DNA from: Scyliorhinus canicula
Taxonomy: Eukaryota
Reading direction: 5' to 3'
NCBI RefSeq assembly: GCF_902713615.1
Contig: NC_052149.1
Span: 15,294,260 to 15,358,259 of the forward strand
DNA length: 64,000 nucleotides
Shown here: piece by piece, positions 15,046 through 61,918 of the stretch
Numbering within the stretch: position 1 is the first letter of the stretch
Layout: every line of letters starts with the position of its first letter
Translations under genes and position numbers: made by a program
The notes under the pieces: model-generated
The model's input: the letters and a program-made list of their open reading frames with translations, nothing else
Told to the model about the DNA's origin: nothing
Database searches by the model: none

Positions 15046-15750
15046 GGGCGACGGGTCGGAGAATAGCGGGAGGGCCTTCCCGACATTTTTCCCGCCCTCC
15101 CGCTATTCTCCCCCACCCCCCGCCCAACTCCCGACCCGAATCGCTGCCGCCGTTTTTTTACGGCCGGCAGCGATTCACAGCTGTTCGATGGGCCGAAGTC
15201 CCAGCCCTTTACGCCGTTTTTACGAACGGCAAACACACCTGGTCTGGCCGTTCGTAAAAACGGCGTCACAAACTCGCTTTTCATAACCATGGCACCGATT
15301 GGCACGGCAGTACCACGGCCGTGCCAAGGGTGCCATGGGCCCGCGATTGGTGGGCACCGATCGCGGGCAGCGGGCCCAATGCCCGCGCACTCTTTCTCCT
15401 TCCGCCGCCCCGCAGTATCCATTCGCGGGGCGGCTGAGGGGCAACCGGGCCCGCGCATGCGCGGGTTTCGCGTAAATACGCGATGATGTCATCCGCGCAT
15501 GCGCGGGTTGGAGTCTTCCAATCCGCGCATGCGCGGCTGACGTCATATGACGCGTCAGCCGGCGCTAACTCCGGCAAGCGGGCTTAACGATATTCGTTAA
15601 GCCCGTCATGCCGGAGCCTACGGCGTCGGGCTGCTAGCCCCGACCAGGGACCAGAATCGGTTCCCGGTCGGGAAGGGGCGCGCTGGCGTCAAACCCGCCC
15701 GGGTTTGACGCCAGCCTTACGATTTCTCCCGTTTTGGGAGAATCGCGCCC
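15046..15750. mobile_element. PIF/Harbinger-like MITE, copy 1 (left end partly deleted)
   Basis: Starts GGGCG, ends GGAGAATCGCGCCC, 3-bp TSD CTT; near-identical to 40504-41227. Confidence 0.85.
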
Positions 15751-16036
15751 CTTTACTTTACAAATTATTCCCCTTCCTGTGAGGGCAGAGCAACTCGCGT
15801 CTCTCTCAAGAAAACAACTCAACTCAACAGTCCCTCTGCAATCCAGGAAATGGTTTAAAGGATAGATCCCGGAACGCAAGTAACATCGACCCTCGAGGTT
15901 TACGGTTTTCAAAGGGCTCCATTTTTACCTACCAAATTGTTATAAAGAGAAAAGGAAACAAGTTTTATTGGTCTCTCTCTCTCTCTCTTTGTATTTTCTC
16001 TACTCTTGACGACCTCCCTACCCTGTTTATCCTGAT

Positions 16037-21305: not shown

Positions 21306-21339
21306 TTCATTTTTCAAACCCTCTAAATCTTCCAGTAAG
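21306..21339 (-). CDS. ODF2L: ODF2L-like coding exon 3, 3' part (split by provirus)
   Basis: After removing the provirus and one TSD it reads ...GAC AG|C TTA CTG GAA GAT TTA GAG GGT TTG AAA AAT GAA|GTAAGT (IDSLLEDLEGLKNE; recalled ODF2 IDSLMNAVGCLKSE). Confidence 0.85.
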
Positions 21340-21343
21340 CTGT

Positions 21344-22156
21344 TGTAGCCATGCTGGCCACGCAAAATGGACACTGAGCCAAACTAAAATGGAAGGCTGC
21401 TGAGAAACAGACAGTTCAGCCAGAACAGCAGTCTGCAAAGAGCAGTTTGCATTCTGCAGCAGCAGAAACCAGTTTGGGCTCAGGTGAAGAGACCTTAGCT
21501 AGGTGCAAATGGCAAAACGCTTTGCATGCTAATGAGGCCATCAGACTTGAACACCCACACAATAGATACATTTGGTTCTGAATGGACACATTCCAATCAA
21601 GACCCAGACATCGAGGCACCAGAAACCTCCGAACAAAAGGACATAAGAAACGCCCCCTCCATCACGGAGACCCCCTCGCATTGGGGAATTAATCCAGTAT
21701 CGATAAGAAATTGATCCAATAGGTAGAGCCCGCCCGGGAAGAGGGAAGGACAACGGAACCCCTATAAAAGATAGGGACCTCGTGTTGTCCGGTCTGTTAA
21801 ACCTGTGCTCCGGCCTCGACTGACACCTGGTACCCTGACTCCAGCCGTTGAGCACCAGCCGCCGAAACCGTAAGTTCAACGCTCGCTACGCGATCCAAGC
21901 CCGCTAGACTCCCAAGTGCCAGAACGCTTGCTGAAGGCTGCAGACAAAACCAGGACGAAGGCCTCGTTCTCTGACCTTGCCTGTTCCTGTTAGATAAGTA
22001 TTCTGTTTGCTTATGTTTAGTTGTAGCTTAGTCTCTTAGTGTGTGTGCATGAGTATTTATTATTAACTGTATAATAAATATTGATCGTTTGAACTTGACT
22101 AATCGGTGTATCGTCTTTATTACTTTGAACCCTTGAGGACCTGTGTTTCGTGCACA
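21344..22156 (+). repeat. 5' LTR (short U5)
   Basis: 21344-22129 matches 30073-30858 except C21833/T30562. CCAAT 21716, GC box near 21728, TATAAAA 21763, donor GTAAGT 21870, AATAAA 22073. Ends CGTGCACA just before the PBS. Confidence 0.9.
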
Positions 22157-22161
22157 TTTAG

Positions 22162-22180
22162 TGGCGACATCCGCCGGGAC
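22162..22180 (+). promoter_or_regulatory. Primer binding site, tRNA-Arg(UCU)-like
   Basis: TGGCGACATCCGCCGGGAC equals the complement of the recalled vertebrate tRNA-Arg(UCU) 3' end (TGGCGACTCCGCCGGGAC) plus one extra A. Confidence 0.75.
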
Positions 22181-22475
22181 CCTGTTGTAAGTGGAAACAC
22201 CACAGTGTTCAGGACCCTGAAATTTGAATTAGAACTCCAAATTGCAGAGAAATAAAGAGATCACAAGTATTCAAGGTGTTCAAAATAATAAGCGAAATTC
22301 GGAAGTGTGTTTTAGTGCATGCGTACTAACAGGGCTGTAAGGTAAAACTGAAAGCTTTTTGTTGCGACAAACTTTCGGTAGTTTTGTAATCGGAAAATAG
22401 CGTAAGCCGTACCCTTTTTCGAAACACCACCCCAGCAACCCCCTGTTCCAAATTATAAAAAGAGAGTCAGAGGAA

Positions 22476-24224
22476 ATGGCCATGCAGGCAATGGAACGCC
22501 TGATGGATCCAGCAAAGTTTGTGGTCGCAGCGACCAGCAGCAGTAGCAGAGTAGGCCAGTGTCCCACGTGGGAGCTGGAACTCCGCAAATATCTGCAGGG
22601 AAAGGGATGGCCCCTTTGGAAAGAGTTTTGTGCAAATGAGGAGACAGGTCCCGGAAGTATAGGTCATACTTGGTGGGAGAACCTCTCTCAGATACACAAA
22701 AAGAGTTTAAGTAAAGCACGCAAGCCGATGGCGATTGTGTCCTGCTTGGCACAGTTGCGAGGCGCAGAGGAGGTTATCAGGACGCTCCGGGCAGATTTAG
22801 AGGAAAGGAACCGAATGAGTAAGGTCGATGTCAGGGACATCGAGAAAGAAAACCTGGATCTTAAAGGGAAGTTGGCAGAGAAGGGTAGAGAGGTGGATGA
22901 TGCCAAGAGGGCTCACCAGTCTTGTCTAGCTCATCTGAACAGTTCCCAGACCCAGTATGAGAAAGCCTATCAGGACGTGCAACGTGCCGTTCTGATAAGA
23001 CAGGAATCGGAAAAGCAGGTGGAGGCATTGCAGAGGCAATGTTCCGATCTCAAAGCAGCTTTGAGAGCACTCCACGCTGCAACGACCGAACAAAGACAAA
23101 GCACAGTTGACCACGCGAAATGCAGAAAACAGATTGCGGAACTGCAATCTCTGCTTTCGGTGCAGAATGGCTTCCAAAGCACCTTTGGAGCACAGTTAGA
23201 TGGGGAAAATGCCCCAGATTGGCAGGAATTAAGCGAGACAGCGCAGCGTTATGTTCAGGGAACATGTGCGCCCGCAGCTCAGCAGAAACGACAGGCACCC
23301 CAACCCCCCACAGCTCAGACCATAACCGCACCCATGAATCCCGTAACCACACAGAGGAAAGCCGAATCAGAAGGCGCCCCAGACATAACTTACACCACCC
23401 CTTTAACAGTAACCCAGCTAAGGGACGCTTGTGAAAAGATCACTCCGTTCCTCCCCACCGCAGACCCCCACCAGTTCTTTGCGAAAGTAAAACAGCAGGC
23501 TACCATGTACGGCCTGGATGAGAGAGAGCAGGTTAAGCTCACCGTGCTGAGCTTAGACCAGAGTGTAGTGGCAGCCCTCCCCGACCCACAAAACGTGGCA
23601 GGAGGCAGCCTAGAGGAGATGCACACTGCTATTTTAGATGCCATCGGGTACAATAGAGGTGACCCCGTAGAAGGCTTGAATAAGTGCAGGCAGAAGAGAT
23701 CTGAACACCCCACAGCATTCGCCGGAAGGCTGTGGATTCACTTCAGCGCAGTTTTCGGACAGCTAGATAGAGCGCATTTAACCCGCGAGAACATGGTTAA
23801 GTGGACGCGCACAATTATCTCACACGCAACAGAAGCAGGACAGAGCGCTTGCAATAATTACGACCCCTCAGAAGAGGCCCATAACGAAAAATGGGTCCTC
23901 AAAAGATTGTCCCGCGCTTGGGAGCAATCGCTTCAGGCAAAAGCAAAGGTTAGATCCCCAGAAGAGGCTCAGGCTGCTGCAGATATCCAAGCAGTCAGAG
24001 AGCACCAGAAGCCCGCATGGGTAAATGAAGGCAAGAGCAGCCCTCAACAGAAAGGACAGGAATGCTATAACTGTGGACAGTTAGGGCATTGGGCAAAAGA
24101 GTGCCAAGCACCCCAGCGATCTCAGAGAGGCCAGCAGACAGGCACTCTGAACCGCAACAAAGCAAAACCAATCCACAATGTAGCAGTACAGTCAGGACCC
24201 ACCAATGTGGACGAGACGAACTGA
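22476..24224 (+). CDS. gag: Gag (582 aa): long coiled coil, capsid-like region, one CCHC zinc knuckle
   Basis: Open ORF after the PBS/leader; CYNCGQLGHWAKEC knuckle; ends in TGA in frame with pol. Confidence 0.92.
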   Translation: MAMQAMERLMDPAKFVVAATSSSSRVGQCPTWELELRKYLQGKGWPLWKEFCANEETGPGSIGHTWWENLSQIHKKSLSKARKPMAIVSCLAQLRGAEEVIRTLRADLEERNRMSKVDVRDIEKENLDLKGKLAEKGREVDDAKRAHQSCLAHLNSSQTQYEKAYQDVQRAVLIRQESEKQVEALQRQCSDLKAALRALHAATTEQRQSTVDHAKCRKQIAELQSLLSVQNGFQSTFGAQLDGENAPDWQELSETAQRYVQGTCAPAAQQKRQAPQPPTAQTITAPMNPVTTQRKAESEGAPDITYTTPLTVTQLRDACEKITPFLPTADPHQFFAKVKQQATMYGLDEREQVKLTVLSLDQSVVAALPDPQNVAGGSLEEMHTAILDAIGYNRGDPVEGLNKCRQKRSEHPTAFAGRLWIHFSAVFGQLDRAHLTRENMVKWTRTIISHATEAGQSACNNYDPSEEAHNEKWVLKRLSRAWEQSLQAKAKVRSPEEAQAAADIQAVREHQKPAWVNEGKSSPQQKGQECYNCGQLGHWAKECQAPQRSQRGQQTGTLNRNKAKPIHNVAVQSGPTNVDETN

Positions 24225-27200
24225 CGGTGTTCGGGCTCCCCCACTTGGGTCTGTGACACACTATGGGACTCATCAGGGAGGCCCGTAGTCACGGCAAAAG
24301 TCAAAGGGAAGCCCATAGAGTTATTGTGGGACACAGGAGGATCCCGCACCACCATTAACTCCACAACCACGGCACACGCAGACACGTGGCCGACCACCTC
24401 CACCATCACACTTAGCGGGTTCACCGGACACTCGCAGCAGGGACATATCACAGCACCCGTAGCGATCCAGCTAGGGAACATTAGCACAAGGCACCCCGTA
24501 GTTTTAGTAAATCTTCCCCGGACAGCAGAGCACATCCTGGGGATAGATTTTATGAACGCCCACAGCTTGTCGTTCGACCCAGTGAACCAGTGTGTCTGGC
24601 GAATGGCGAGATCAGACAGAGCCCCAGCCACCCTCACAGTAGGAGACTACGCTAATCGGATTAGCGCAGTGGGAGAGTACTCATTCGACCTGACTACACT
24701 CCACACCGACCGACAAATTAAGGCCCTTCTAAACAAACACAGGACAGCATTTGCAAGTCACCGTCATGACTGTGGCAGAATGACTGGACAAGTTCATGTT
24801 ACCGGACAGGACCCCCGACCGCAAAAGCAGTATAGATTTCCCCTCGAGGCAGAGGTGGAAATAGAAAAGGTTATAGGCAGCTTGTTGGACCAAGGTGTAC
24901 TGAGAACGGTAGCCTCCACCAACAATGCCCCTATTTGGCCAGTGAGGAAGCCCGATGGATCATGGCGTCTGACCATCGATTATCGGGAACTCAACAAAGT
25001 AACCCCCGCAGTAGCCCCACCGGTAGCTACTAGTCCCGAGACCATGCTCAAGCAGGGTCTCAACGCCAAGTACTTCACGGTATTGGACATCAGTAATGGA
25101 TTCTGGTCAATACCATTGGCAAAAGCGTGCCAATACAAATTCGCATTCACTTTTAAAACTCAGCAGTACACGTGGACATGCCTCCCACAAGGATTCCACA
25201 ATTCCCCCTCCATTTTCCACCGACAGCTGGCAAGTGGATTAGAAAAATTTTCCCGACCCGAATGTCTGGTACAGTACGTAGACGACCTACTACTGCAGAC
25301 AGACACAAAGGCAGAGCACATTTCGCTTCTGGCCGAACTCCTAGAACTCTTAACTGAAATTGGCTGTAAAGTTAACCCGAAAAAGGCCCAAATATTGGAA
25401 AGTAAAGTGATGTATTTGGGATCAGTCATCACGCACGGCAAACGCGAGATCGAATTCAAAAGAATTGATTCGATCGTCAAATTGCCCCTTCCCCAGAATG
25501 TATCAGCCCTCCGGTCGTTTTTAGGACTGGTTGGCTATTGTCGGAACCACATCGACGGATTCGCGACAAAAGCCGCCCCACTTTCAGACCTCCTTAAGAA
25601 AGGAGCCCCCTGGGAATGGCTTCCGCAGCATACAGGCGCTGTGGAAGAGTTAAAACGAGCCCTTAGTGCAGCACCCGCGCTGCTAGTCCCCGACCAACTT
25701 TCACCGTACGCAATCGAGGTAGCTAGCACAGATCTAACCCTCTCGGCCGTGTTGCTTCAAGAACGGCACGAGCAGCTAAGACCAGTGGCTTATGCCTCCC
25801 GACTGCTAGACCCAGTAGAACAAGGATTTTCAGCCTGTGAGAGGCACCTCCTTGCTGTCTTCTGGGCAGTGCAGTATTTCTCATACATCACCGGACTCAA
25901 CCCCATCACCATTCTAACCGAACACACACCCACACAGCTACTACTAGACGGTCGACTGAAGGACGGTTCAGTTAGCCAGATTAGGGCAGCTAGGTGGACC
26001 CTACTTTTACAAGGACGGGACATTACAGTGAAACGGACACGCACCCACACATACTTAGCAGACAACCTCCAATACCCAGGACAGCCCCATGACTGTGAAA
26101 TTGTAGCTCCCCTGCACAACACAGGACCCTTTTTAGCCAAAACACCCCCCAGGAAGATAGGGAACCCGAAACAAAGCCCCCAGCCCACAGACACGTGTGG
26201 ACCCTTGAGGATTTATGTAGACGGTTCCTCCACAGTTTTAAATGGTGAGCGTATCACAGGATGCGGCATCTACGTAGAGGACGCGCAGGGGCGCGCTCTC
26301 GAAGAAATCGCTCTTAAGTTACCAGGTCACTTAGGCGCGCAGGCAGCAGAGCTAGCAGCCATAGCGTACATAGTGGACCACCCCGATTCTTTCCCCAGCC
26401 CAGCAGACATATATTCAGACAGCTTATATGTCTGTAACAGTTTAACCGATTTTCTGCCCCTGTGGAGGACACGAGGTTTTGTCTCCGCAGACGGAAAACC
26501 CCTTCCATCAGCCCCTCTACTCCAGCATATTTTAGCGAAAGCGAAGGACAGGACCTTCGGCATTATAAAAGTTCGCAGCCACCATAGGTCATCACCACCT
26601 GGGAATGTAAAAGCCGACGCGTTGGCTAAGGCAGGTTCCAGGAGAGGACACTTATGGACCCCCCCAGCTAGCGCACCAGCTAGCGCCCCTGTGAGCGCAG
26701 TCCAAGTCTCACAGACTGATATTAAAGATCTCGTGGCAGCACAAAAACAGGACGGAGACCTCAGGGAGGTTTTCAAGGGAAACTTTGTGCCTGCTTACGA
26801 GCACTTTAAACACGCACTGACCACACATGAGGGTGTGATCATTAAGGACCGACTTTATGTGGTCCCACAGCAGGACAGGAATCAGATGATTGCCTTGTTC
26901 CATGACGGACACGGGCATCAGGGAATTGATGCAACAACGAGGCACCTCAGACAACTCTGTTGGTGGCCTGATCTCAGGAATGATGTAACGCACTACATAG
27001 AGAATTGCCTGATTTGTGCTCAGAATAACCCGGACAGGTATTCTAGGAAGGCACAACTTCGGCATACTCGCCCAGTTAACGGCCCTTGGACAAACCTCCA
27101 GATCGACTTTATAGGTCCATTGCCCCCTTGTAGGAATGGCTATAAATACGTTCTGGTGGTGATAGATACCTTTACCAAGTGGGTAGAGGCATTTCCCTCA

Positions 27201-28451
27201 CGAACAAATACAGCAAAGACAGCTGCAAAGATCCTGACCCACCACATCTTCACGAGATGGGGTTTACCCCGAAGTATCGATTCGGACCAGGGATCTCACT
27301 TTACAGGACGGGTCATGAGGAACGTCCTGACAATATTCGGAATCAAACAGAACTTCCACATTGCGTATCATCCACAGTCCAGCGGGATTGTGGAGCGCAT
27401 GAATCGGACCCTAAAAACTACCCTTAGGAAAATGGTTCAAGAGAACAATTCCACATGGGATTCAGTGCTCCCCTTTGCACTTATGTTCATAAGGAACACT
27501 GTCTCCACATCGACAGGACACACACCACATACACTCATGACCGGACGCCCTATGAAAGGTACAGAATTCCTTTTAGGACTGGACATGACAAGCCCCGAAG
27601 TGACGGCCCTCACACATGAAAAGGCAGTTAAAGAACTAGTTGAGACTGTGAGGTCTGCACAGCTCGCAGCCGCAGTCCAGCTAGGGAAACGCCGACAGCA
27701 ACATACTGCCTGTTTCAATAAGACCGTACACACCACAGAATTCCAGGTTGGGCAACAGGTAATGTTATCTGTTTATAACCCCAGCAGTTTTTTGGCTCCA
27801 AAATATTCCGGCCCCTACTCAATTTCGGACAAAATTAGCCCCTCCGTTTACAGGATAAAGTATCCTAATGGGAAGACCGCGTGGTTCCATATAAACCAGT
27901 TAAAGGCATATGGAACACAGGCCAACCATGCCCACCATGTCCTGCTAGACGCAGCAGAACACTTCACCCCGCCCACCAGAGACACTTTTCCACCATCCCC
28001 CTCACAGACCAGTACATCAACGGACTCGCCCACGACTCCGCCCACAGACCACTACAGACCACGCCCCGACACGCCCACAAGCTGCCACAGCAGAGACAGT
28101 AGGACAGACACTGACTCTGAAGACAGCGACACCACACAGCCATACAGCCCACACTGCACCACCTACGACCCCGACTCCAGTGACCCCATGGAAGTCACTT
28201 ACCTTAAAAACCCAGAACCACCACCCGACCCCGCCTACCCCGACAACACACTCGACGCCACACAATGGCACAGGGACAATTCCTACAGACTTGTCCGCAA
28301 TGACGAGAGTGACCCCCGGTCACACAACTCCAAAATAGCATGCCTGATCCACACAAGGGTGTGGGATCCGGGAGAGCAGGACGACACGGTGTCTGACTCC
28401 CGACACGGCAACCCCTTTGTGACCCTGTTCACAGAGGCAGAATCAAAGTGA
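24225..28451 (+). CDS. pol: Pol (PR-RT-tether-RNase H-IN), most likely expressed by readthrough of the gag UGA
   Basis: Same frame as gag with no further stop. PR LLWDTGG; RT LDISNGF, LPQG, YVDD; degenerate RNase H (EVAST...TEH); second RNase H (YVDGSS, AQAAEL, IYSDS, GNVKADALAK); IN HHCC, LQIDF / SDQG / VERMN, GPY motif. Confidence 0.95.
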   Translation, partial: RCSGSPTWVCDTLWDSSGRPVVTAKVKGKPIELLWDTGGSRTTINSTTTAHADTWPTTSTITLSGFTGHSQQGHITAPVAIQLGNISTRHPVVLVNLPRTAEHILGIDFMNAHSLSFDPVNQCVWRMARSDRAPATLTVGDYANRISAVGEYSFDLTTLHTDRQIKALLNKHRTAFASHRHDCGRMTGQVHVTGQDPRPQKQYRFPLEAEVEIEKVIGSLLDQGVLRTVASTNNAPIWPVRKPDGSWRLTIDYRELNKVTPAVAPPVATSPETMLKQGLNAKYFTVLDISNGFWSIPLAKACQYKFAFTFKTQQYTWTCLPQGFHNSPSIFHRQLASGLEKFSRPECLVQYVDDLLLQTDTKAEHISLLAELLELLTEIGCKVNPKKAQILESKVMYLGSVITHGKREIEFKRIDSIVKLPLPQNVSALRSFLGLVGYCRNHIDGFATKAAPLSDLLKKGAPWEWLPQHTGAVEELKRALSAAPALLVPDQLSPYAIEVASTDLTLSAVLLQERHEQLRPVAYASRLLDPVEQGFSACERHLLAVFWAVQYFSYITGLNPITILTEHTPTQLLLDGRLKDGSVSQIRAARWTLLLQGRDITVKRTRTHTYLADNLQYPGQPHDCEIVAPLHNTGPFLAKTPPRKIGNPKQSPQPTDTCGPLRIYVDGSSTVLNGERITGCGIYVEDAQGRALEEIALKLPGHLGAQAAELAAIAYIVDHPDSFPSPADIYSDSLYVCNSLTDFLPLWRTRGFVSADGKPLPSAPLLQHILAKAKDRTFGIIKVRSHHRSSPPGNVKADALAKAGSRRGHLWTPPASAPASAPVSAVQVSQTDIKDLVAAQKQDGDLREVFKGNFVPAYEHFKHALTTHEGVIIKDRLYVVPQQDRNQMIALFHDGHGHQGIDATTRHLRQLCWWPDLRNDVTHYIENCLICAQNNPDRYSRKAQLRHTRPVNGPWTNLQIDFIGPLPPCRNGYKYVLVVIDTFTKWVEAFPSRTNTAKTAAKILTHHIFTRWGLPRSIDSDQGSHFTGRVMRNVLTIFGIKQNFHIAYHPQSSGIVERMNRTLKTTLRKMVQENNSTWDSVLPFALMFIRNTVSTSTGHTPHTLMTGRPMKGTEFLLGLDMTSPEVTALTHEKAVKELVETVRSAQLAAAVQLGKRRQQHTACFNKTVHTTEFQVGQQVMLSVYNPSSFLAPKYSGPYSISDKISPSVYRIKYPNGKTAWFHINQLKAYGTQANHAHHVLLDAAEHFTPPTRDTFPPSPSQTSTSTDSPTTPPTDHYRPRPDTPTSCHSRDSRTDTDSEDSDTTQPYSPHCTTYDPDSSDPMEVTYLKNPEPPPDPAYPDNTLDATQWHRDNSYRLVRNDESDPRSHNSKIACLIHTRVWDPGEQDDTVSDSRHGNPFVTLFTEAESK

Positions 28452-29390
28452 GGTGTCCAGATGATGTAAGATAGGAATCGTTTGAGGGAAACGATGTCCT
28501 TTCTGATGGAACCTGCACGTATGTTTGTCTTCGTTTTATGTTTGTTTGTCTCAGGATTGTACAATGTTTCAGCTGGAGGATGGACATCTTCTTTTCAGCT
28601 GAAAAGATTGTGACCACCTCACATACACGTTAGTTTGTCCGCAGATACTTCTGAGAACTTCGGTTTGATTGGAGATCTTTTCCAAAGTTGTAAGGCCACA
28701 CGCCAAATAGTTTATCTGCAGATATCTCTGAGAACTTCAGTGATGTCCTCAGTTGGAGCATCTTGGCTCCCTTGGTTTCTTTTTTAGGTGCCCCTCTATT
28801 CGGCGAAATAGAGGCTGCAAGTCATGGTAAACACATTCGTACCCGTTTTTCCAGGTTACTCAGGCAGTGGACAAACGGCACTGAGGACCCGCCCTGTCTG
28901 AGAACCAACCCTTGGTCAGCCAAGCTCGGGTATGGCACAGCACGCCCTACCCGGGGATCCCATCCAACTCGTACCCGTAGCGGCCCATACGCAACTCATT
29001 CGGATGTTTCTTTCCAAATTTGTTTTCATTTTAGGTTAGGTAGCCCTTCGGCCGCCATCCCACATGCTATTTACATCCGGAAACATTCGGATGGTAAATC
29101 AGCAAAGCCTGCGAGACGGCTCGCAGAAGGAAGGATTGTTAGGTGTATGCTGGTCTTTAAATTCGCTTTTTGAAAAAAAAAATGAGGGGAGTCACAGGGT
29201 GTGACTTAGCCAGTCATTTTAAAGGGTCAATTGGGTTTTGAAAGACAGATGCACTAACAAGTAAAGGTCTTAAACTGTGTATTGACAGATACTGTGCTTG
29301 ATCCCAAAGGTTTCAAAGGACGAGACAGAGGTCGAAGCCAGGATTGTCAATACCGGAGGAAGAAGGAAGAGAAAGAGGAAGAACAGCAAA

Positions 29391-29744
29391 ATGATGGAAG
29401 CCCACTTATTACTATTTAATGTCATATGTATATGTGTGGAAACAAGACACGTTTCCCCCACAACCCCCACCGTAAATGTTAGTACAACAAACCCCCAGTG
29501 CTCAGCTCTGATCAGCGAGGTTCAGACCTGGTGTACTAAATTCATGACGTGGTACTCCATGTCCTACATAATCGAATCACTGTTGGTGATTGCGATCCTC
29601 ACCATCCTAGTGCAGACCCTCAGGTTGAGGAAATGGAAGAGGAGAGCCTCTCGTTCCAGCACCTCACCCATCTATAGAGTGCAATCCCCCATCTTCGGAT
29701 TCCACCAAACCCCTCAACCCCTCACTGATTACAACACTCTGTAA
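29391..29744 (+). CDS. Putative 117-aa single-pass membrane protein in the env position
   Basis: ATGATGG start 102 nt after the acceptor TTGACAG| (29288), with branch-like CACTAAC at 29252. Hydrophobic N-terminus, NVS sequon, C-x10-C, TM YIIESLLVIAILTILV, basic RLRKWKRR, tail ending DYNTL. Confidence 0.65.
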   Translation: MMEAHLLLFNVICICVETRHVSPTTPTVNVSTTNPQCSALISEVQTWCTKFMTWYSMSYIIESLLVIAILTILVQTLRLRKWKRRASRSSTSPIYRVQSPIFGFHQTPQPLTDYNTL

Positions 29745-30062
29745 ATAAAATTCAGCCATGTATTATATTGTTCCATACTCGACTGCCGAGTTGGGAAGTG
29801 TGATGTTGTGGTGTGAATGGTTAAGATTTTAGAGTGATTAAATGTTTAAGTTAAGGTTAAGGTTAATAGTGATAGGTAGAGGTTCCCAATTGTAGTAATG
29901 CATGTCCCTTTGACATAGGGCCAAGTAGAAATGTTAGTTAAAATTTTTTTCTCTTCTTCCCATAGTTTAGAACAGAGTAGAACAGGAACTGGCAAGAGGT
30001 CAGAACACAAGGAGGCAAAGTACATAGGTGATCCTTCACAATAGTATGATTGTGAGGATCAC

Positions 30063-30072
30063 AAGGAGGGAA
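30063..30072 (+). promoter_or_regulatory. Polypurine tract
   Basis: AAGGAGGGAA immediately before the TG of the 3' LTR. Confidence 0.85.
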
Positions 30073-31024
30073 TGTAGCCATGCTGGCCACGCAAAATGGA
30101 CACTGAGCCAAACTAAAATGGAAGGCTGCTGAGAAACAGACAGTTCAGCCAGAACAGCAGTCTGCAAAGAGCAGTTTGCATTCTGCAGCAGCAGAAACCA
30201 GTTTGGGCTCAGGTGAAGAGACCTTAGCTAGGTGCAAATGGCAAAACGCTTTGCATGCTAATGAGGCCATCAGACTTGAACACCCACACAATAGATACAT
30301 TTGGTTCTGAATGGACACATTCCAATCAAGACCCAGACATCGAGGCACCAGAAACCTCCGAACAAAAGGACATAAGAAACGCCCCCTCCATCACGGAGAC
30401 CCCCTCGCATTGGGGAATTAATCCAGTATCGATAAGAAATTGATCCAATAGGTAGAGCCCGCCCGGGAAGAGGGAAGGACAACGGAACCCCTATAAAAGA
30501 TAGGGACCTCGTGTTGTCCGGTCTGTTAAACCTGTGCTCCGGCCTCGACTGACACCTGGTATCCTGACTCCAGCCGTTGAGCACCAGCCGCCGAAACCGT
30601 AAGTTCAACGCTCGCTACGCGATCCAAGCCCGCTAGACTCCCAAGTGCCAGAACGCTTGCTGAAGGCTGCAGACAAAACCAGGACGAAGGCCTCGTTCTC
30701 TGACCTTGCCTGTTCCTGTTAGATAAGTATTCTGTTTGCTTATGTTTAGTTGTAGCTTAGTCTCTTAGTGTGTGTGCATGAGTATTTATTATTAACTGTA
30801 TAATAAATATTGATCGTTTGAACTTGACTAATCGGTGTATCGTCTTTATTACTTTGAATTTGACCTTGGAATACTTGTGACGTTGCCTATACGGCAGCTG
30901 GCGACTCCAGAGCTTAAATAATTACATAGAACAGAGCCTAGCAGTGTTAAGCACACGTCGAACTCGGAGGCGTGTTAATACACTCCAATAAACGCGTTTT
31001 ACGCCCATAGTAAAACGTGCAACA
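30073..31024 (+). repeat. 3' LTR (long U5)
   Basis: Copy of the 5' LTR to 30858, then 166 unique bp ending CGTGCAACA, followed by TSD CTGT. Confidence 0.9.
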
Positions 31025-31164
31025 CTGTCGATCTGAAGTCCACACTGATACGCTCGTCCATTAATGGTGGATTCCTTATCACAGCTGGCATCGCTGGAAG
31101 GGGTTACAGAGGAGTTATTTTCTGCATTGCCCAAGGTGATGTACAGCCTTTGCGTTGGCCCATT
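31025..31164 (-). CDS. ODF2L: ODF2L-like coding exon 3, 5' part (split by provirus)
   Basis: ctttgtattag|AAT GGG CCA... NGPTQRLYITLGNAENNSS...INGRAYQCGLQID; resembles the recalled ODF2 GPTHRLEIT motif. Confidence 0.85.
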
Positions 31165-40503: not shown

Positions 40504-41227
40504 GGGCGAAATTCTCCGACCCCCACGATGGGTCGGAGAATAGCGGGAGGGCCTTCCCGATATTTTTCCCGCCCTCCCGCTATTCTCCCCCACCCCCCGC
40601 CCAACTCCCGACCCGAATCGCTGCCGCCGTTTTTTTACGGCCGGCAGCGATTCACAGCTGTTCGATGGGCCGAAGTCCCAGCCCTTTACGCCGTTTTTAC
40701 GAACGGCAAACACACCTGGTCTGGCCGTTCGTAAAAACGGCGTCACAAACTCGCTTTTCATAACCATGGCGCCGATTGGCACGGCAGTACCACGGCCGTG
40801 CCAAGGGTGCCATGGGCCCGCAATCGGTGGGCACCGATCGCGGGCAGCGGGCCCGATGCCCGCGCACTCTTTCTCCTTCCGCCGCCCCGCAGTATCCATT
40901 CGCGGGGCGGCTGAGGGGCAACCCGGCCCGCGCATGCGCGGGTTTCGCGCAAATACGCGATGACGTCATCCGCGCATGCGCGGGTTGGAGTCTTCCAATC
41001 CGCGCATGCGCGGCTGACGTCATATGACGCGTCAGCCGGCACTAACTCCGGCAAGCGGGCTTAACGATATTCGTTAAGCCCGTCATGCCGGAGCCTACGG
41101 CGTCGGGCTGCTAGCCCCGACCGGGGACCAGAATCGGTTCCCGGTCGGGAAGGGGCGCGCTGGCGTCAAACCCGCCCGGGTTTTACGCCAGCTTTACGAT
41201 TTCTCCCGTTTTGGGAGAATCGCGCCC
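40504..41227. mobile_element. PIF/Harbinger-like MITE, copy 2 (complete)
   Basis: TIRs GGGCGAAATTCTCC / GGAGAATCGCGCCC; 3-bp TSD ACT (40501-40503 / 41228-41230). Confidence 0.88.
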
Positions 41228-42687
41228 ACTTACTTTGTAGAGATGTCTTGGACACCTTGTTATGAGAGATATATTCTAAATGAGCCAGCTTGCGGGCTCT
41301 TGCCTCTCCCAAACAATCTAACCAGCCTTCCTTTGAGAAGCTGCTCCTGTGCTGTTCACATCCAAATCTTTAGCTCGCTGTTTTGAGAGAAATTGTTCCT
41401 GTTCACATCCTGAATGCACTCCTGTGCTGTAACTGGATGGATCAAAACCCACTGTTTTGAAACGCTGTTTGTCTGTCCACAGTCCAATCTTTAACTGAAC
41501 TGTTTTTCCAGAAACTGAAAACTCAACACTCAACTGCTGCAGCCCCTGGCTCCTCCCATTAACTGCATCACCTTACCAAACTAAGCACAATGTCTCAAAT
41601 CATCTACTCCCCAGGGAACATCTTTATATAAGCAAAATTCCATTAGTCCAACTTTTACTCTGCTATAATTGCACCTGTCTCTAAAAGGCCTAACTGCCTT
41701 GTTTTAAAAACATGACTGCAGCAGTCACACACACACTAACCCAGGCTTTTAAACGTCAGTTCACCAAATACATATAATCTGAAATGCTTACATTCATCAC
41801 AACAGTTACAGCACAGGAGTCCATTCAGCCTATCATGTCTGTGCCTGCTCTCTGCAAGAACTCCTCAGCTAGCCCCATTCCCCCCACCCCATCTTTTCCC
41901 TGAAGGCCAGCAACCTTTTCTCTTCAAACTATTGTCCAACTCATTTTTGAAAGCCACAATGGAATCTGCCTCTACCACAGTTTTGGGCTGCGCATTCCAG
42001 ATCCTAACCACTCGCTGCCTTTGTTTATTTGACTGCTAACCTTAAATCGCCATCCCTCTGTTTCTCCACCAAAGTCTAAGAGGAACAGTTTCTCCCTACT
42101 CTGTCCAGACCTCACGATTTTGAACACTTCTGGCAAATATCCTCTCGGGCTCCTCTTCTCGAAGGAGAACACAGCTTCTCCTGTACATCCACCTCCCTGC
42201 AACCGTTCGTATGAATCTTTTCCGCACTCTCTCCATTGCATTCACACCCTTCTTAAAGTGTGGTGCCCAGAATTGGAAACCAATACTCCAGTTGAGGCCA
42301 AAGCAGTGTTTTACTGAGATGTATCACTACATTACTCCACGTCTCTATTTTCAAAGGTCAGCATCCCTCTAGCCTTATTAACCTCTTTCTCAATCCATTC
42401 TGCCATTGTCAATGATTTGTGCATACATACTCCCCCAACCCCCGTCCCGAAGTCCCTCTGTTCCTGTTTCTCATTCTTTCCATCACATTACCCTGCATTC
42501 ATTTGATCTACCACACATCCTGCCATTCCAACAACCCACCTCTGTCCTTTTGGAATCTATCACATTGTTCTCGCAGTTCGCAATACCTCCCGAGTTTTGT
42601 CTCATCCACAAAGCTTTGGGCCTGAATTCCTCTGCACGAGGGTGGGCTGGGTCAACAAGAGCGGCAGTCTCCTCGGCCGGGAATTTT

Positions 42688-45600
42688 CCAGAGCACAGGA
42701 ATGCAAGATCGGCTAAGGGTCTGCTGATGGGCCCAGGATCAAAGAACTTCTCAGAACTCTGCATTTTGCCTCACCTCTATTCCCAATACAACACATGTCA
42801 CCCAAGATGACATTCTGGAGCATATAGTCACAGGCATATCCATTGGCTGTATCTGTGCCACAGAAAGAGCATTAAGATCCTAGATTCTTTTTCTATTTTT
42901 CCCTCAATTCTACTTTTTGGTTGTGATGTTGGCTTTGCAATGTAGCAACATTGGCTGTGGTATTACTGAAGTCATTCTCACTCTTTTTGTTTTGGTTATG
43001 TATAAACAAATGTATTTGAAGTGAATTTCCAAATGGAAAATAAAAATGTATTGATTATTAATTTTGAAAGCTTGCCCTGCACGCCCAAGTCAAGATCTTT
43101 TTCAAAAAAAACTTGTACAATAATAATGATCTTTATTACTGTCACAAGTCAGCTTACATTACACTGCAATGAAGTTACTGTGAAAAGCCCCAGGTCGCCT
43201 CACTCTGGCACCTGTTCAGGTACACTGAGGGAGAATTCAGAATGTCCAATTCGCCTAACAAGCACGTCTTTCGGGACTTGTGGGAGGAAACTGGAGCTCC
43301 CGGAGGAAGCCCACGCAGACACGGGGAGAACGTGCAGACTCCGCACAGACAGTGACCCAAGCTGGGACTCAAACCTGGGTCCCTAATGGATGTGGGCGTC
43401 GTTGGCTGGGTCAGCATTTGTTGCCATCCCTAATTGCCCTTGAACTGAGTGGCTTGCTTGACCATTTCAGAGGGGCAGTTATGAGTCCACCACATTGCCT
43501 GGGTGTGGAATCACATGTCGGGTAAGGACGGACCAGGTAAGGATGGCAGATTTCCGTCCCTGAGGGACACGAGTGAAGCAACCGTTTTTCATGACAATCA
43601 ACGATAGCTCCATGGAAACTATTAGCTATGCTAATTTTATATTCCAGGTTTATCAATTGAGAATTTAACTTCCACCAGGTGAGGCTTGAACCCTCGCCCC
43701 CAGCCCCCAAGAGCATTATCCAGAGCCTGTGGAATATTAGCCCAGTGACATTACCACTGCATCAACACCTAGGAAGGGTGCGATTGCACTTAAAGGGTGC
43801 AGAGGGGATTCAGCAGGTTGTTGCCTGGTCTGGAGCGTTTCACCTATGCAGAGCGGCTGGCTAAACTGAGATTGTTTTCCTTGGAACAAAAACAAACGGA
43901 TGACCTCCTTGAGGTGCTTAAAATTATGAGGGACATAGATAGGAAGGGACTTTTTCCCTTAGTGGAGGGGTCACCAACCAGAGGGCATTGATTTAAAGTA
44001 AGGGGCAGGAGGGGATTTGAGGAGAAGTTTTTTCACCCAGAGGGTGTTGGGAATCTGGAACTCGCTGCCTGAAAGGAAAGGGCCCTTACAACATTTAAGA
44101 AGCATTTAGACAAGCACTTGAAAAACACCATAGCATACAAGGTAACGGCAAAGTGCTGGAAAATGGGATTAGAGTTGATTGGTGCTTGATAGCCGGCATG
44201 GACACACAGGGCCTCCTTTTGTCCTGTAAAACTCAGTGATTATCTTCCTCAAATATATATAATAAATATTAAGAAAATTTGCCGTCCTATCGCAGCAACT
44301 CCTGGGGAATCTGTTGTATACCAACCAGTCTGGTAAACCAGTTCACCATTCCTCTGGAACCTGTCACTGGAACTCTTCCACCCAGCTGTGGTTTCAGAGC
44401 AGGGGTTTGACCCCAGTGTGGTTTCAGGGCAGGGGTTTGACCCCAGTGTGGTTTCAGGGCAGGGGTTTGACCCCAGTGTGGTTTCAGGGCAGGGGTTTGT
44501 CCCACTGTGGTTTCTGGGCAGGGTTTTGACCCCAGTGTGGTTTCAGAGCAGGGGTTTGACCCCAGTGGGGTTTCAGGGCAGGGGTTTGTCCCACTGTGGT
44601 TTCAGGGCAGGGGGTTGACCCCAGTGTGGTTTCAGGGCAGGGGTTTGTCCCCAGTGTGGTTTCTGGGCAGGTGTTTGACCCCAGTGTGGTTTCAGGGCAG
44701 GGGTTTGACCCCAGTGTGGTTTCAGGGCAGGGGGTTGACCCCACTGTGGTTTCTGGGCATGTGATTGACCCCAGTGTGGTTTCTGGGCAGGGGGATGTCC
44801 CCAGTGTGGTTTCAGAGCAGGGGTTTGACCCCAGTGTGGTTTCTGGGCAGGGGTTTGACCCCAGTGTGGTTTCAGGGCAGGGTTTGACCCCAGTGTGGTT
44901 TCAGAGCAGTGGTTTGACCCCAGCGTGGTTTCAGGGCAGGGGTTTGTCCCACTGTGGTTTCTGGGCAGGGGTTTGACCCCAGTGTGGTTTCTGGGCAGGG
45001 GTTTGACCCCAGTGTGGTTTCAGAGCAGGGGTTTGACCCCAGCGTGGTTTCAGGGCAGGGGTTTGTCCCACTGTGGTTTCTGGGCAGGGGTTTGGCCCAC
45101 TGTGGTTTCTGGGCAGGGGTTTGACCCTAGTGTGGTTTCTGGGCAGGGGTTTGATCCTAGTGTGGTTTCTGGGCAGGGGGTTGACCCCAGTGTGGTTTCT
45201 GGGCAGGGGTTTGACCCCAGTGTGGTTTCTGGGCAGGGGGATGTCCCCAGTGTGGTTTCTGGGCAGGGGTTGACCCCAGCGTGGTTTCTGGGCAGGGGGA
45301 TGTCCCCAGTGTGGTTTCTGGGCAGGGGTTGACCCCAGTGTGGTTTCTGGGCAGGGGTTGACCCCAGCGTGGTTTCTGGGCAGGGGGATGTCCCCAGTGT
45401 GGTTTCTGGGCAGGGGTTTGATCCCAGTGTGGTTTCTGGGCAGAGGTTTGATCCCAGTGTGGTTTCTGGGCAGGGGTTTGACCCCAGTGTGGTTTCTGGG
45501 CAGAGGTTTGATCCCAGTGTGGTTTCTGGGCAGGGGTTTGACCCCAGTGTGGTTTCTGGGCAGAGGTTTGACCCCAGTATGGTTTCTGGACAGGGGTTTG

Positions 45601-45815
45601 TCCCCAGTGTAGTTTCTGGGCAGGGGTTTGATCCCAGTGTGGTTTCAGGGCAGAGATTTGACCCCAGTGTGGTTTCAGAGCAGGGGTTTGACCCCAGTGT
45701 GGATTCTGGGCACAGCTTGACCCCAGTGTGGTTTCTGGGCAGGGGTTTGACCCCAGTGTGGTTTCAGGGCAGGGGTTTGACCCCAGTGTGGTTTCAGGGC
45801 AGGGGTTTGACCCCA
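42688..45815 (+). repeat. 3.1-kb direct duplication, copy 1
   Basis: Nearly identical to 46137-49264 (offset 3448-3449; about 4 differences seen by eye). Confidence 0.93.
44380..45815 (+). repeat. 30-bp G-rich minisatellite, about 48 units
   Basis: Unit CCCCAGTGTGGTTTC(A/T)GGGCAGGGGTTTGA. Confidence 0.95.
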
Positions 45816-46138
45816 TAGAACATAGAACAGTACAGCACAGAACAGGCCCTTCGGCCCTCAATGTTGTGCCGAACAATGATCACCCTACTTTAAACCCATG
45901 TAACCCGTAACCCAACAATCCCCCCATTAACCTTACACTACGGGCAATTTAGCATGGCCAATCCACCTAACCCGCACATCTTTGGACTGTGGGAGGAAAC
46001 CGGAGCACCCGGAGGAAACCCACGCACACAGGGGGAGGACGTGCAGACTCCACACAGACAGTGACCCAGCCGGGAATCGAACCTGGGACCCTGGAGCTGT
46101 GAAGCATTGATGCTAACCACCATGCTACCGTGAGGCCC
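45814..46138 (-). mobile_element. Full-length V-SINE with CR1-type (TTCTATG)n tail at the duplication junction
   Basis: Minus strand GGGCCTCACGGTAGCATGG...GGCCGAAGGGCCTGTTCTGTGCTGTACTGTTCTATGTTCTATG. Confidence 0.92.
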
Positions 46139-58480: not shown

Positions 58481-58500
58481 GTTCTGAGCAGCGTTAGAAG
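58481..58500 (+). CDS. TRIM exon 4 (20-bp micro-exon)
   Basis: ttttttgtag|GTTCTGAGCAGCGTTAGAAG|gtaagt; supplies the phase 0->2 link needed for exon 5. Confidence 0.78.
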
Positions 58501-60116
58501 GTAAGTTTAACATTTTAAATTAGTTAATGTACGAAGCTGAATGAATTGCCACTGGAAAATGCTTTACTATTTGAGGCCTCGACTTTACTCAAATCAGCGT
58601 ACTGCAGCTTCAAACTTAGTTGATTTGGCACCCAAATTTTACTCTGGTGAAGAAATGGTTGCCTGCTCAGTTTTATACAACACCACACCAGTTAAGATTG
58701 GAGCACTTGTCATTTTGCAGATGTTGGCAGACAATTTTACATTAAATGTGTGAAGCTGATTCGATAATTCTAACAACCATTGAAACACCCTTGCCCCAAA
58801 ACAAAATCGCATTAAACCAGTGACGAGAGGGGGGGAGGGAGTGTGGCATCATCTTGCAGGCGAGCAACTGCAAGCAGGTTAAACTGGGATTAAACTTCAC
58901 TCTTACTCATTCTACGTTGTGACTCATAGACATTCACTAAACATTGCACTTTAGATCATTGGGCTACCTCTTGGCTATGTTGGCTGATGAACTCTATTTT
59001 AATTGCACTACTTTGGTACATGGGCGTCGCTGGCTGGGTCAGCATTTATTGCCCTTGAGGGGGCCAATTTCAGAACCCACCACAATCTGGAGTGACGCAT
59101 AGGCCAGACCGGGTAAGGATGGCATATTTTCTCCCCCAGCGGACACTCGTGAACCAGGCGGGTTCTTGCAGCCATTGATCCAGATTTTAATTCAAATTTA
59201 ACCATCTGCTGAAGTGGGATTTGAACCCAGCTCCCCAGAGTATTACCCTAAATCTCTGGATTATTAGTCCAGTGGCAATACCAATACACCACCTCCACCC
59301 CTCCGCCTCAGGACCAGCTAACATTAAATCGTTTTAATACAGAGAAGTGAGCCATCATTTCCATTCTCTTTTAGAAAGATTTGAATTTATCTAGCACTTT
59401 TCCTCCGAACATCCCAAAGCGCTTGATAGCCAATCATAGGGGCTGTTTAGCACAAGACTAAATTGCTGGCTTTGAAAGCAGACCAAGGCAGGCCAGCAGC
59501 ACGGTTCAATTCCCGTGCCAGCCTCCCCGAACAGGCGCCGGAATGTGACGACTAGGGGCTTTTCACAGTAACTTCATTCGAAGCCTGCTTGTGACAATAA
59601 GCCATTTTCACTTCATTCATTTTTATTTTTTCATTTTCATTTCATTTCATTTTCATTTCATTTCTTTTTCATTTCATTTCATTTTCATTTCATTTCATTT
59701 CATTTCAAGTACATTGACATTTACTCACTGTCAGAAACATAGGACGAAACAAGTAGAAGTTAATTTAACCAACTCTCCTCACCAGTTTTACTAGAATTGA
59801 GGTATATCAACCAAATAGTTTATATAACTCAGACCAGAATTAACTTTGACGTAAGCACGATACTGCTTAATGAACAGCGGTATGAGTTACCTGTGGGCAT
59901 AGCGGCAATTGTTTTCCTGTCCGGAGCATGTGTTTCCCAGGATTCATTGGAAGGAACTCAACTTCTGTAGTGATTTTTGTTTTTATTTTAATGAGGCATG
60001 TTTGTTCAAACTTGAAAACCTGTCTTTTCGATTCGCGACCTTTTATAGCCTACTTTAAGAAAAAATACAGTGCGTGTTTTTAATTGGTTATCTTCTCCAT
60101 ATTTATGCATTCACAG

Positions 60117-60259
60117 TACAAAAATCAAGGAACAGGACCTTGGTTTAAAAGAGCTTCAGGAGGTGACAAACCACTTAAAAAACATAGTGCCCGAGCCACA
60201 TTTCAGCAAGAAAAGGAACATTCCTAGCATTTTAACAGCTTTGGGGGAATTATTTTCAA
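60117..60259 (+). CDS. TRIM exon 5 (linker)
   Basis: cattcacag|T ACA AAA ATC...TTT TCA A|GTAAGT; phase 2->1. Confidence 0.8.
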
Positions 60260-61364
60260 GTAAGTCCGTGCTAAATGCAATACACCATATAAAATATGCA
60301 GCAGTGCCTGTAAAACTGAACATGCTGTGGTATTCTGGACACAGGAAAAGACTTGTGGATGTTGAAGGCCAATTTTCACTGAGTTCCTTTGGGATGTGGC
60401 CTTCGCCCAACCATCTTCAGCTACTTCATTTAGTCACCTTTGCTCCGTCAAAATTTGCATGGCGTGCTGGTGGTTTCAGCGTGCAACTCCATTCACACTC
60501 CTTCAATAATGAATACGGCAGCCTAAACAGAACCTGGACAAGTGACAGGTGGACGTTGGGTCACTTACATACCAGATAGTGACCATCTCAGGGCAAGATT
60601 GGGCCCAGCCGCCTCACCTTCACTTCAGTGGCATTGCCATCGCCAACTTCCCCACAAGGTGAGAGGCTTGTTGAAGAGGAAGTTGCCTCTCCACCATTGA
60701 GTTTGGGGAATGGTAAAATGCTTACCATTTCCCGGCACGGGTGCAGGTGCAGTGCCACTTACCTCCACACCATTCAGGACGGAGCAGTTTGTTTAGTGCC
60801 CCAACCATTGGGCTGTATATCTGCCCTTGCCACACAGTGGCTGCCGTATGTCTGATTGACAATATGCACAGTCAGATAGTTACTTTGACAGAACATGCAG
60901 CGTCCTGATTGGGCATTTCTATATTTTAATAATGATATCTTTATTAATGTCACAAGTAGGCTTACATTAACACTGCAGTGACGTTACTGTGAAAATCCCC
61001 TAGTCGCCACACTGTTCGGGTACACTGAGGGAGAATTCAGAATGTCCAATTCACCTAACAGGCACTTTTGGGACTTGTGAGAGGAAACCGGAGCACCCGA
61101 AGGAAACCACGCAGACACGGGGAGAAGGTGCAGACTCCGCATGGACAGTGACCCAAGCCGAGAAACTGACCTGGGTCCCTGGCGCTGTGAAGCAGCAGTG
61201 CTAACCACTGTGCTCCCGTGCCACCCTAATTTCGTCCCATACAAATGACGGATCTGTGGTTGAAATCTCCATCGAATTGCCAAGACAGATTCTAACTCGC
61301 CCATGAGTCTTATCTTTTCTAATTTATGCTCGAATGTAACTTTTTTTTTTTTGCCCTCTTCTAG

Positions 61365-61918
61365 ATCAAGTTATCCAATTGGACACGAGCAATGCGCATG
61401 CACAGCTGGAAATAAGTAGGGAAGGCACCACAGTTGGAGCCGTTGAGGGGAAGCACAATGAGGTGTGCAGTGCAGAACGCTTCAGCACCTCTTTCAATGT
61501 GCTGGCCAAGAGAGGCTACATTACTGGCCTTCACTACTGGGAGGTCAGCGTGAAAAACATTCCTTCGTGGGCTGTGGGGGTAGCCTACCAGAGCATCCCA
61601 CGCACGCCACCGGGAAGCAGGCTGGGAACCGAGGAAAGCTCCTGGGCATTTTCTTGCTCAAAAGGGGGCCTTTGCTGCGCTCAACACAACATGGAAGTGA
61701 TGTATTTTCGCTACGAAAAGCAACTGGAAAACATTGGCATCTATCTGGATTGTGACAGCGGCATTCTGACGTTTTGCGATGCAGATTCTGTGCAGTGTTT
61801 GTACACATTCTATTGCACGCTGAAAGCACCGGTGTTTCCTGCCTTTTGTCCAAAGTTTAATGAGAACCAAGAGTTTTCGATGGTCCCCATGATCATTCAC
61901 AGCGGTATCATTGACTGA
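61365..61918 (+). CDS. TRIM exon 6: PRY-SPRY (B30.2)
   Basis: ctcttctag|AT CAA GTT ATC CAA TTG GAC; motifs LDTSNAH, GLHYWEV, WAVGVAY, IGIYLD, VFPAF; stop TGA at 61916-61918. Confidence 0.93.

Follow-up and report, generated by a model that had tools for sequence, protein, structure and literature searches.

The locus described here raises the question whether a retroviral insertion has destroyed a gene of the catshark Scyliorhinus canicula. We analysed a stretch of 64,000 nucleotides of contig NC_052149.1 (assembly GCF_902713615.1, positions 15,294,260 to 15,358,259 of the forward strand), which is called the window below and is numbered from its first letter. An original prediction made from the letters alone had seen in it a young provirus splitting a coding exon of an ODF2-family gene and had proposed a knockout allele. 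The insertion is confirmed: an integrase has placed a long terminal repeat (LTR) element into an ODF2-family gene, and the exon hit is a genuine coding exon. As the explanation for the locus as a whole we consider it rather probable that an endogenous retrovirus (ERV) which lacks env, resembles the snakehead retrovirus (SnRV) and was recently active integrated antisense into exon 3 of the gene ODF2L and caused a leaky loss of function.

Insertion of the provirus into a coding exon

The element comprises 9,681 nt (21344-31024, plus strand), begins with TG at 21344, ends with CA at 31024 and is bordered on both sides by CTGT. It stands antisense to the host gene, which is read from the minus strand, and splits coding exon 3 of this gene:

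21340-21343 (strand not applicable): left copy of the target-site duplication, CTGT (sequence)
31025-31028 (strand not applicable): right copy of the target-site duplication, CTGT (sequence)
31025-31164 (minus): 5' part of ODF2L coding exon 3, 140 nt, with the native acceptor (sequence, orthologues)
21306-21339 (minus): 3' part of ODF2L coding exon 3, 34 nt, with a strong native donor (sequence, orthologues, splice scoring)

When 21344-31024 and one CTGT are excised, the host pieces 31164->31025 and 21339->21306 join to an open 174-nt exon of phase 0-0 with good splice sites, namely a pyrimidine-rich TAG acceptor and a GTAAGT donor. The original prediction could thus be reproduced in this point, as also in the placement of the provirus within a coding exon and in its antisense orientation. 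The empty exon is 94.8% identical to that of S. torazame over 58 aa, and protein comparison shows the orthologous proteins to be continuous across the insertion junction; for these two reasons chance can be excluded as the origin of the exon split. Since the exact 4-bp duplication restores orthologous codons, we infer that the insertion was made by an integrase and is not a misassembly. There is no N in the 64-kb window.

Identity and state of the host gene

The host gene was traced over 12 coding exons:

1271-37880 (minus): host gene ODF2L/BCAP, 12 traced coding exons, extending past the window start (exon tracing, tree)
37880-37776 and 33083-32970 (minus): coding exons 1 and 2 (traced)
21056(21023)-20857 (minus): coding exon 4, with two in-frame acceptors, 21056 and 21023 (traced)
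18115-18025 (minus): coding exon 5, 91 nt, short by 36 nt (12 aa) (traced)
16687-16556, 14897-14823, 14674-14603 and 14257-14141 (minus): coding exons 6-9 (traced)
7488-7303, 6915-6806 and 1406-1271 (minus): coding exons 10-12 (traced)

The traced exons form an open frame of 504 codons with AG/GT splice sites throughout except for one GC donor (a GC-AG intron at 14822, minus strand, follows the exon 14897-14823), and a downstream exon is 100% identical to the S. canicula protein listed as 'ODF2-like' in RefSeq. In a tree of 30 named proteins, a quick version run without bootstrap and containing no tetrapod ODF2L row, the gene branches within a clade of chondrichthyan sequences that belongs to the BCAP/ODF2L side, together with gar, bowfin and coelacanth BCAP/ODF2L. 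The separate ODF2 clade (11 rows, shark ODF2 included; value of 100 in the SH-like approximate likelihood ratio test, SH-aLRT) excludes the catshark gene, which rules out ODF2 proper. By its position in this tree the host gene is the ODF2L/BCAP paralogue; the membership in the ODF2 family proposed at first stands, and the paralogue is now placed apart from shark ODF2. According to a meeting abstract (PMC4519066), ODF2L is a protein of the centriolar satellites and holds ciliation back, and zebrafish morphants show ciliary phenotypes. The catshark allele differs from the gene described there in being split by a provirus and 12 conserved residues short.

Judged from its coding sequence the gene shows no long decay. 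Lineage-specific amino acid changes number 23 on the canicula and 18 on the torazame side over 718 aligned columns, in agreement with the earlier claim that the gene was not long dead before the insertion; a long-dead pseudogene is unsupported given these counts, the 504 open codons and the canonical splice sites. The claim that all other traced exons are intact holds for the open frame and the splice sites and overlooked a second lesion: exon 5 has suffered a 36-nt in-frame deletion of a conserved coiled-coil block that is kept in 20 of 20 other aligned homologues and carries a Met in most orthologues.

The RefSeq model for S. canicula starts at an ATG within intron 4 and omits exons 1-4, so that the insertion explains the truncated ODF2L model in the annotation of this species. 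Most orthologue models use acceptor 21023 rather than 21056 at exon 4, and the junction 32970->21056 that had been proposed for exon skipping is therefore not the sole skip junction possible. Several orthologue models skip exon 2 (33083-32970, minus strand), and in the S. torazame models the exon 14897-14823 ends 9 aa early.

Effect of the insertion on the ODF2L allele

Two regions of the antisense LTRs bear on the fate of ODF2L transcripts:

30785-30924 (minus): antisense LTR with in-frame TAA 30924-30922, AATAAA at 30850 and 30790 and weak donors only
21353-21399 (minus): antisense LTR end with cryptic acceptors able to rescue the 34-nt remnant (splice scoring)

With the insert in place the frame of exon 3 runs for 80 codons and ends at the TAA in the antisense LTR, as had been foreseen. 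The best donor ahead of this stop, at 31002, scores 3.6 (native donors 3.2-10.1), and on the host strand the provirus carries AATAAA at 30850, 30790, 22121 and 22061. The 34-nt exon remnant retains a top-scoring donor and has in front of it, at the LTR end, cryptic acceptors whose scores fall in the native range: 21383 and 21353 are in frame (85th and 87th percentile among 2,272 AG sites), and 21399, 21396 and 21373 shift the frame. Skipping of the whole phase 0-0 exon is in frame as well, again as predicted.

We compared the exon among chondrichthyan protein models spanning exon 1 to exon 4, which gave 14 species after exclusion of four species without an exon-1 match. Exon 3 is full in 7, shortened or diverged in 4 (Leucoraja, Hemiscyllium and two Chiloscyllium) and absent in 3 (Stegostoma, Mobula and Hypanus); Callorhinchus, which is outside this count, has it. 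Orthologues thus do include the exon. Because exon 3 is absent or shortened in 7 of the 14 models and in-frame cryptic acceptors are at hand, the knockout is uncertain: the in-frame stop and the antisense AATAAA signals speak for it, and the in-frame skip, the acceptors 21383 and 21353 and the missing or short exon 3 of other species speak against it. The insertion probably cripples this gene copy without certainly destroying its function. Setting the stop, the AATAAA signals and the weak donors against a dispensable exon 3 and in-frame acceptors, we regard a strong loss of function with some leakage as the most likely state of the allele.

We propose the following course of events. After the integrase had inserted the SnRV-like element with a 4-bp duplication into coding exon 3 of ODF2L/BCAP, transcripts using the exon 3 acceptor would lack a good donor and reach the in-frame stop. 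Such transcripts would terminate at the antisense AATAAA 30850 or 30790 and give a truncated product of ~150 aa; alternatively they would splice late and then be degraded. A minority would escape in frame, either by skipping of exon 3 or through the LTR acceptors 21383 and 21353, and the exon would be dispensable in other lineages to judge from the Stegostoma, Mobula and Hypanus models. In addition, LTR transcription running antisense into the gene is possible by orientation, the element being on the plus and the gene on the minus strand.

Several points weigh against this explanation. The outcome of splicing and polyadenylation was deduced from the sequence; the splice scores derive from a home-made position weight matrix trained on 13 acceptors and 11 donors of the host gene only, and the top-scoring cryptic acceptor, 21399, shifts the frame. 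No obvious GU-rich downstream element was found at the antisense AATAAA signals. The orthologue models are cluster representatives, and species scored as exon-less may have exon-containing isoforms. Finally, a RefSeq model omitting exons 1-4 is also compatible with little or no rescue.

A true null allele, either rare or carried by the sequenced fish in the heterozygous state, with a wild-type allele supplying function, would fit the in-frame stop with its antisense poly(A) signals, the 9.7-kb insert with near-identical LTRs, the rest of the gene being without excess amino acid change, and a RefSeq model that stops short of bridging the insertion. We nevertheless consider it unlikely, given the in-frame skip and the in-frame cryptic acceptors, the 7 of 14 species' models with exon 3 absent or shortened, and the fact that no empty-allele S. 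canicula protein was found among the protein matches, where clustering at 90% could hide one. It is also conceivable that the insertion is tolerated and may even be fixed, if loss of exon definition leads to dominant clean skipping and to a protein resembling the models of Stegostoma, Mobula and Hypanus. The phase 0-0 exon lies in the least conserved, N-terminal region and is naturally missing from the models of 3 species, its 5' half is left without a strong donor and would therefore have a poorly defined acceptor, and the LTR date permits more than 1 million years. However, the polymerase must then pass all four antisense AATAAA signals, 7 species, the closest relatives among them, retain exon 3 complete and at full length, and the annotation holds no skip isoform, so that a tolerated insertion seems rather unlikely to us.

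Two further alternatives were weighed. In this species, or on this haplotype, ODF2L might already have been lost or relaxed, so that provirus and 36-nt deletion would both be decay; two independent lesions on one haplotype and a separate ODF2 paralogue in other sharks would agree with this, but 504 codons without stop or frameshift, canonical splice sites and 23 versus 18 derived substitutions make it very unlikely. Extremely improbable in our view is an assembly artefact in which a copy of a repeat was wrongly assembled into the exon: the region is rich in repeats, a 3.1-kb duplication of 99.87% identity lies close by and the unequal LTR ends described below could be a two-locus chimera, yet the duplication of the target is exact to 4 bp, the ends are TG..CA, orthologous codons are restored and the window is free of N.

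Structure and age of the provirus

The leaky-allele explanation involves an element with the following parts:

21344-22156 (plus): 5' LTR, 813 nt, made up of 786 common nt and a 27-nt U5 end (LTR alignment)
22162-22182 (plus): sequence like a primer-binding site (PBS), starting TGGCGAC, 5 nt past the U5 CA (sequence)
22476-24224 (plus): gag, 582 aa, ending in an in-frame TGA (open reading frame without internal stop)
24225-28451 (plus): pol, 1408 aa, stop-free (domain search)
29391-29744 (plus): small open reading frame (ORF), 117 aa from ATG, frame open from 29286 (ORF, homologues)
30063-30072 (plus): polypurine tract ahead of the 3' LTR (sequence)
30073-31024 (plus): 3' LTR, 952 nt, made up of 786 common nt and a 166-nt tail (LTR alignment)

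Gag has a long N-terminal helical or coiled-coil part and one CCHC knuckle; neither a myristoylation motif nor a late motif was found in it, and its single-sequence fold (predicted local distance difference test, pLDDT, 46.8) is too weak for use. Pol comprises a protease, a reverse transcriptase (RT) with YVDD, a tether with a second RNase H and an integrase with a GPY motif; the catalytic motifs are intact and there is no dUTPase motif. An env gene is absent: pol and the 3' LTR are 1,621 nt apart, and the longest frames in this interval have 159 and 152 aa, neither with a Pfam match. The PBS-like site at 22162 presumably resembles the 3' end of tRNA-Arg; the primer of SnRV is tRNA-Arg.

The stretch of ~940 nt at 28452-29390 (plus strand) contains short ORFs and a number of strong splice sites, both acceptors and donors, and a basic stretch lies in frame upstream of the ATG of the small ORF and is present in three homologues too. 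The features of 28452-29390 may serve spliced accessory mRNAs as in SnRV. Searches of the 64 kb with Rfam gave 0 matches, and ARAGORN gave two doubtful tRNA calls in the window, both outside the element.

The two LTRs differ by 1 mismatch over the 786 common nt (99.87% identity). This corresponds to an age of 1.3 million years (0.03-7.1) at the rate as in PMC10699275 and of 2.9 million years (0.07-16) at the rate as in PMC4422223, and the single mismatch could instead stem from an error of reverse transcription or from assembly polishing. Near-identical LTRs together with 0 stops in 582 + 1408 codons point to a recently active element. The provirus is thus young as claimed, with a range of 0.03-16 million years at published shark rates. 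Over such a range the allele, which the original prediction had called probably polymorphic or heterozygous, may be heterozygous, polymorphic or fixed.

Unequal LTR ends

The 5' LTR, with TATA at 21763 and AATAAA at 22073, closes with a CA-terminated 27-nt U5 end (22130-22156) that occurs in this copy only. The 3' LTR has in its place a 166-nt tail (30859-31024), likewise restricted to its copy, with a second TGGCGAC at 30899, which is the only other copy in the element besides the PBS-like site, an AATAAA at 30987, 32 nt from the end, a terminal hairpin and a CA end. The tail has a high ratio of observed to expected CpG of 1.3. The 5' U5 end pairs with the leader at ~22250-22295, around the PBS (z -2.7). 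The 3' variant can form a duplex with the same part of the leader (-19.0 and -23.6 kcal/mol for the two variants), as expected of homologous functional U5s. As an LTR pair the two copies share 786 nt at 99.87% and enclose a PBS-like site and a polypurine tract, and their U5 ends differ (27 versus 166 nt).

In standard reverse transcription both ends receive copies of a single U5, and for this reason a one-off recombinant is the simplest explanation. In our judgement it is somewhat probable that the unequal ends arose in one recombinant reverse-transcription event from two co-packaged subfamily RNAs with different U5. That they are a trait of the family seems possible and doubtful, and that they are an assembly chimera fairly unlikely, again by our own judgement. 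Simple deletion of the 5' U5 is unlikely, since the 27 nt are a diverged sequence and not a part of the 166 nt, and since they pair with the leader. Intermolecular strand transfers have been documented (PMC5651808), in a text that, as far as accessible, does not show unequal U5 ends.

Classification of the element

The Pol has the layout of the Retroviridae, that is protease, RT, tether, RNase H and integrase. An RT tree was built from 41 rows, the element and the 40 named matches among 120 listed, with unnamed rows left out. In this tree the element stands outside the Loki clade (100/99) and outside an 18-row class I clade (100/97). Among the matches listed its best named relatives are frog and coelacanth elements (42-46%), and these are also nearest in the tree with 54-58% RT identity. 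The closest named Pol relative, P0036 from Pyxicephalus, is a model that continues into a signal-peptide-like and, by eye, Ig-like segment without a Pfam Ig match; its C-terminus may be a captured gene in env position or the product of a chimeric model.

In the central RT motif block, compared by eye on the supplement alignment of PMC7947760, 37 of 46 positions are identical to SnRV; the corresponding count is 23 of 46 both for Loki-Lch and for feline foamy virus. On the strength of this motif identity we file the element provisionally as SnRV-like (clade Huo). It counts against the assignment that the element sits at the base of the retroviral rows with a branching order that is not settled, in a tree without SnRV. 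With SnRV and SnRV-like elements (PMC12193657, PMC6001957) it shares the closest RT of the references compared, a dual RNase H and small accessory ORFs 3' of pol; in contrast to SnRV-like ERVs it has no env and has unequal LTR ends. SnRV is the sole exogenous member of its clade (PMC12193657), and some SnRV-related ERVs carry a zinc finger and a GPY motif (PMC4299795). SnRV-related ERVs are known in a chimaera (CmiERV lineage I, PMC4422223); the one complete SnRV-related copy dated in the elephant shark is ~75 million years old, whereas the catshark element is coding-intact with an LTR divergence of 0.13%.

Other groups were examined and rejected. A Lokiretrovirus was our first guess because of the dual RNase H and the NYNRIN-like matches, and it is ruled out by RT motifs and tree. 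The likeness to Lokiretroviruses (PMC7947760) consists in the tether with second RNase H, in matches named NYNRIN-like and in a coiled-coil-rich Gag region, but the RT motifs differ and neither an Env related to paramyxo- or pneumovirus F nor any env-sized ORF is present; six cartilaginous-fish genomes were screened for Loki in that work and none is marked positive in the part accessible. Gypsy is ruled out by the second RNase H and the tree. For foamy-like ERVs layout and motifs do not fit: the fish foamy-like hallmarks QYP(L/I)N, YIDD and GGGTG at the border of polypurine tract and LTR are not found, the element having YVDD, a different N-terminal RT motif and GGGAA before TG. The same reasons rule out ERV-Spuma.0-Sca (PMC10699275), which comes from the same host species with 293 elements, some of them young, and is close in size (9.2 kb). 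Its LTRs measure 866/869 nt (813/952 nt in the element), its pol 2.9 kb (4.2 kb and in frame in the element) and its env, which the element lacks, 1.3 kb, and it clusters with teleost foamy-like ERVs; two motifs from the LTR start of the element were not found in the supplement of that paper, whose long entries were covered to 400 characters. The layout does agree with class I ERVs in the 4-bp target-site duplication, the Gag zinc finger, the GPY motif, the in-frame gag-pol stop and the lack of a dUTPase (PMC4299795 Table 1, PMC8278194), but class I (gamma/epsilon, ERV1) is rejected because the RT lies outside the 18-row clade. ERV3/ERV-L and ERV4 have a 5-bp duplication and neither zinc finger nor GPY (PMC4299795 Table 1), in contrast to the 4-bp duplication, CCHC and GPY of the element.

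A small membrane protein in the env position

The small ORF downstream of pol is predicted to consist, in this order, of a signal-peptide-like start, an N-glycosylation sequon, a Trp/Cys helix, one transmembrane helix, a polybasic stretch and a short tail. A comparison with 1.84 billion proteins gave 5 matches. In 4 of them (E 1e-34 to 5e-12) the same compact unit closes a gene model that looks chimeric; the fifth, P0257, a repeat-rich protein aligning over the transmembrane stretch only, was dropped. As the four compact homologues, which come from protein models, have 21 invariant columns, we take the ORF to be a conserved gene. No match was found in Pfam, none of 200 BFVD matches reached E<=0.001, phage records gave nothing, and the best value in the ESM Atlas, 0.86, is a lead only.

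In its layout the protein resembles the sORF2/FAST proteins of env-less insect retrotransposons, nackednaviruses and reoviruses (PMC11952523): ~100-200 aa, a short ectodomain with an amphipathic stretch, one transmembrane helix, a juxtamembrane polybasic patch and a host element without env. In some Lepidoptera elements sORF2 lies downstream of pol, as does the small ORF here, and for Drosophila MDG1 elements sORF2 moves capsids from cell to cell, and envelope-independent spread between cells has been shown in insects (PMC11952523). The catshark protein differs in having no N-myristoylation motif (no MGxxxS/T) and instead a signal-peptide-like start and a glycosylation sequon; there is no match in sequence or fold, and the likeness is one of layout. 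Its carrier is an element of the vertebrate retroviral clade, a class not named in the accessible part of PMC11952523. A shrunken env remnant that kept leader, signal peptide and membrane anchor, or a viroporin-like accessory protein, would fit equally well.

Significance

Young ERVs are known to disrupt genes, and in this respect the locus is of a familiar kind. Mouse alleles caused by IAP and ETn insertions show premature stops, premature polyadenylation, cryptic splicing and possibly LTR-driven antisense transcription. The catshark insertion differs from these in being exonic and not intronic and in lying in a shark reference genome, with an effect that is predicted only. What is new, and of more value than the disruption, is the element: coding-intact, env-less and SnRV-like, with LTRs that end differently and a small, conserved membrane gene. 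No description of the locus or the element family was found in the literature searched, from which subscription papers and Repbase were largely excluded, so that the family may already be catalogued. From a coding-intact copy in a conserved exon it follows that the family was mobile recently, in a slowly evolving genome.

Should an empty allele segregate, the catshark would have a natural ODF2L mutant. With its conserved gene for a small membrane protein, an env-less SnRV-like member would allow a direct test of whether vertebrate retroviruses, too, spread from cell to cell independently of an envelope. One may go further and combine a SnRV-related lineage still active in the catshark germ line, a conserved small membrane protein that has taken the place of env and carries capsids between cells, permanently unequal LTRs and an ODF2L hit segregating as a natural cilia or sperm mutant in a laboratory model shark. 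All of this together we regard as quite unlikely; if true, a terminal poly(A) signal and a second primer-like site, both confined to the 3' end, would imply a non-canonical strand transfer.

Neighbourhood of the locus

A TRIM gene with RING, B-box, coiled coil and PRY-SPRY occupies 50139-61918 (plus strand) and points away from ODF2L. Between the two, at 42688-49264, lies the duplication of 3.1 kb with 99.87% identity, either recent or an assembly artefact, which overlaps two arrays of a 30-nt minisatellite (44381-45815 and 47829-49535). A repeat of 711 nt is present in two copies at 97.9% (15049-15759 and 40526-41236), one of them within an ODF2L intron, and is probably a young transposon. 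Near the end of the window the ORF 62918-63442 (plus strand) has a weak GDSL-esterase/OSK match and is likely a fragment of ORF1 of a long interspersed nuclear element (LINE).

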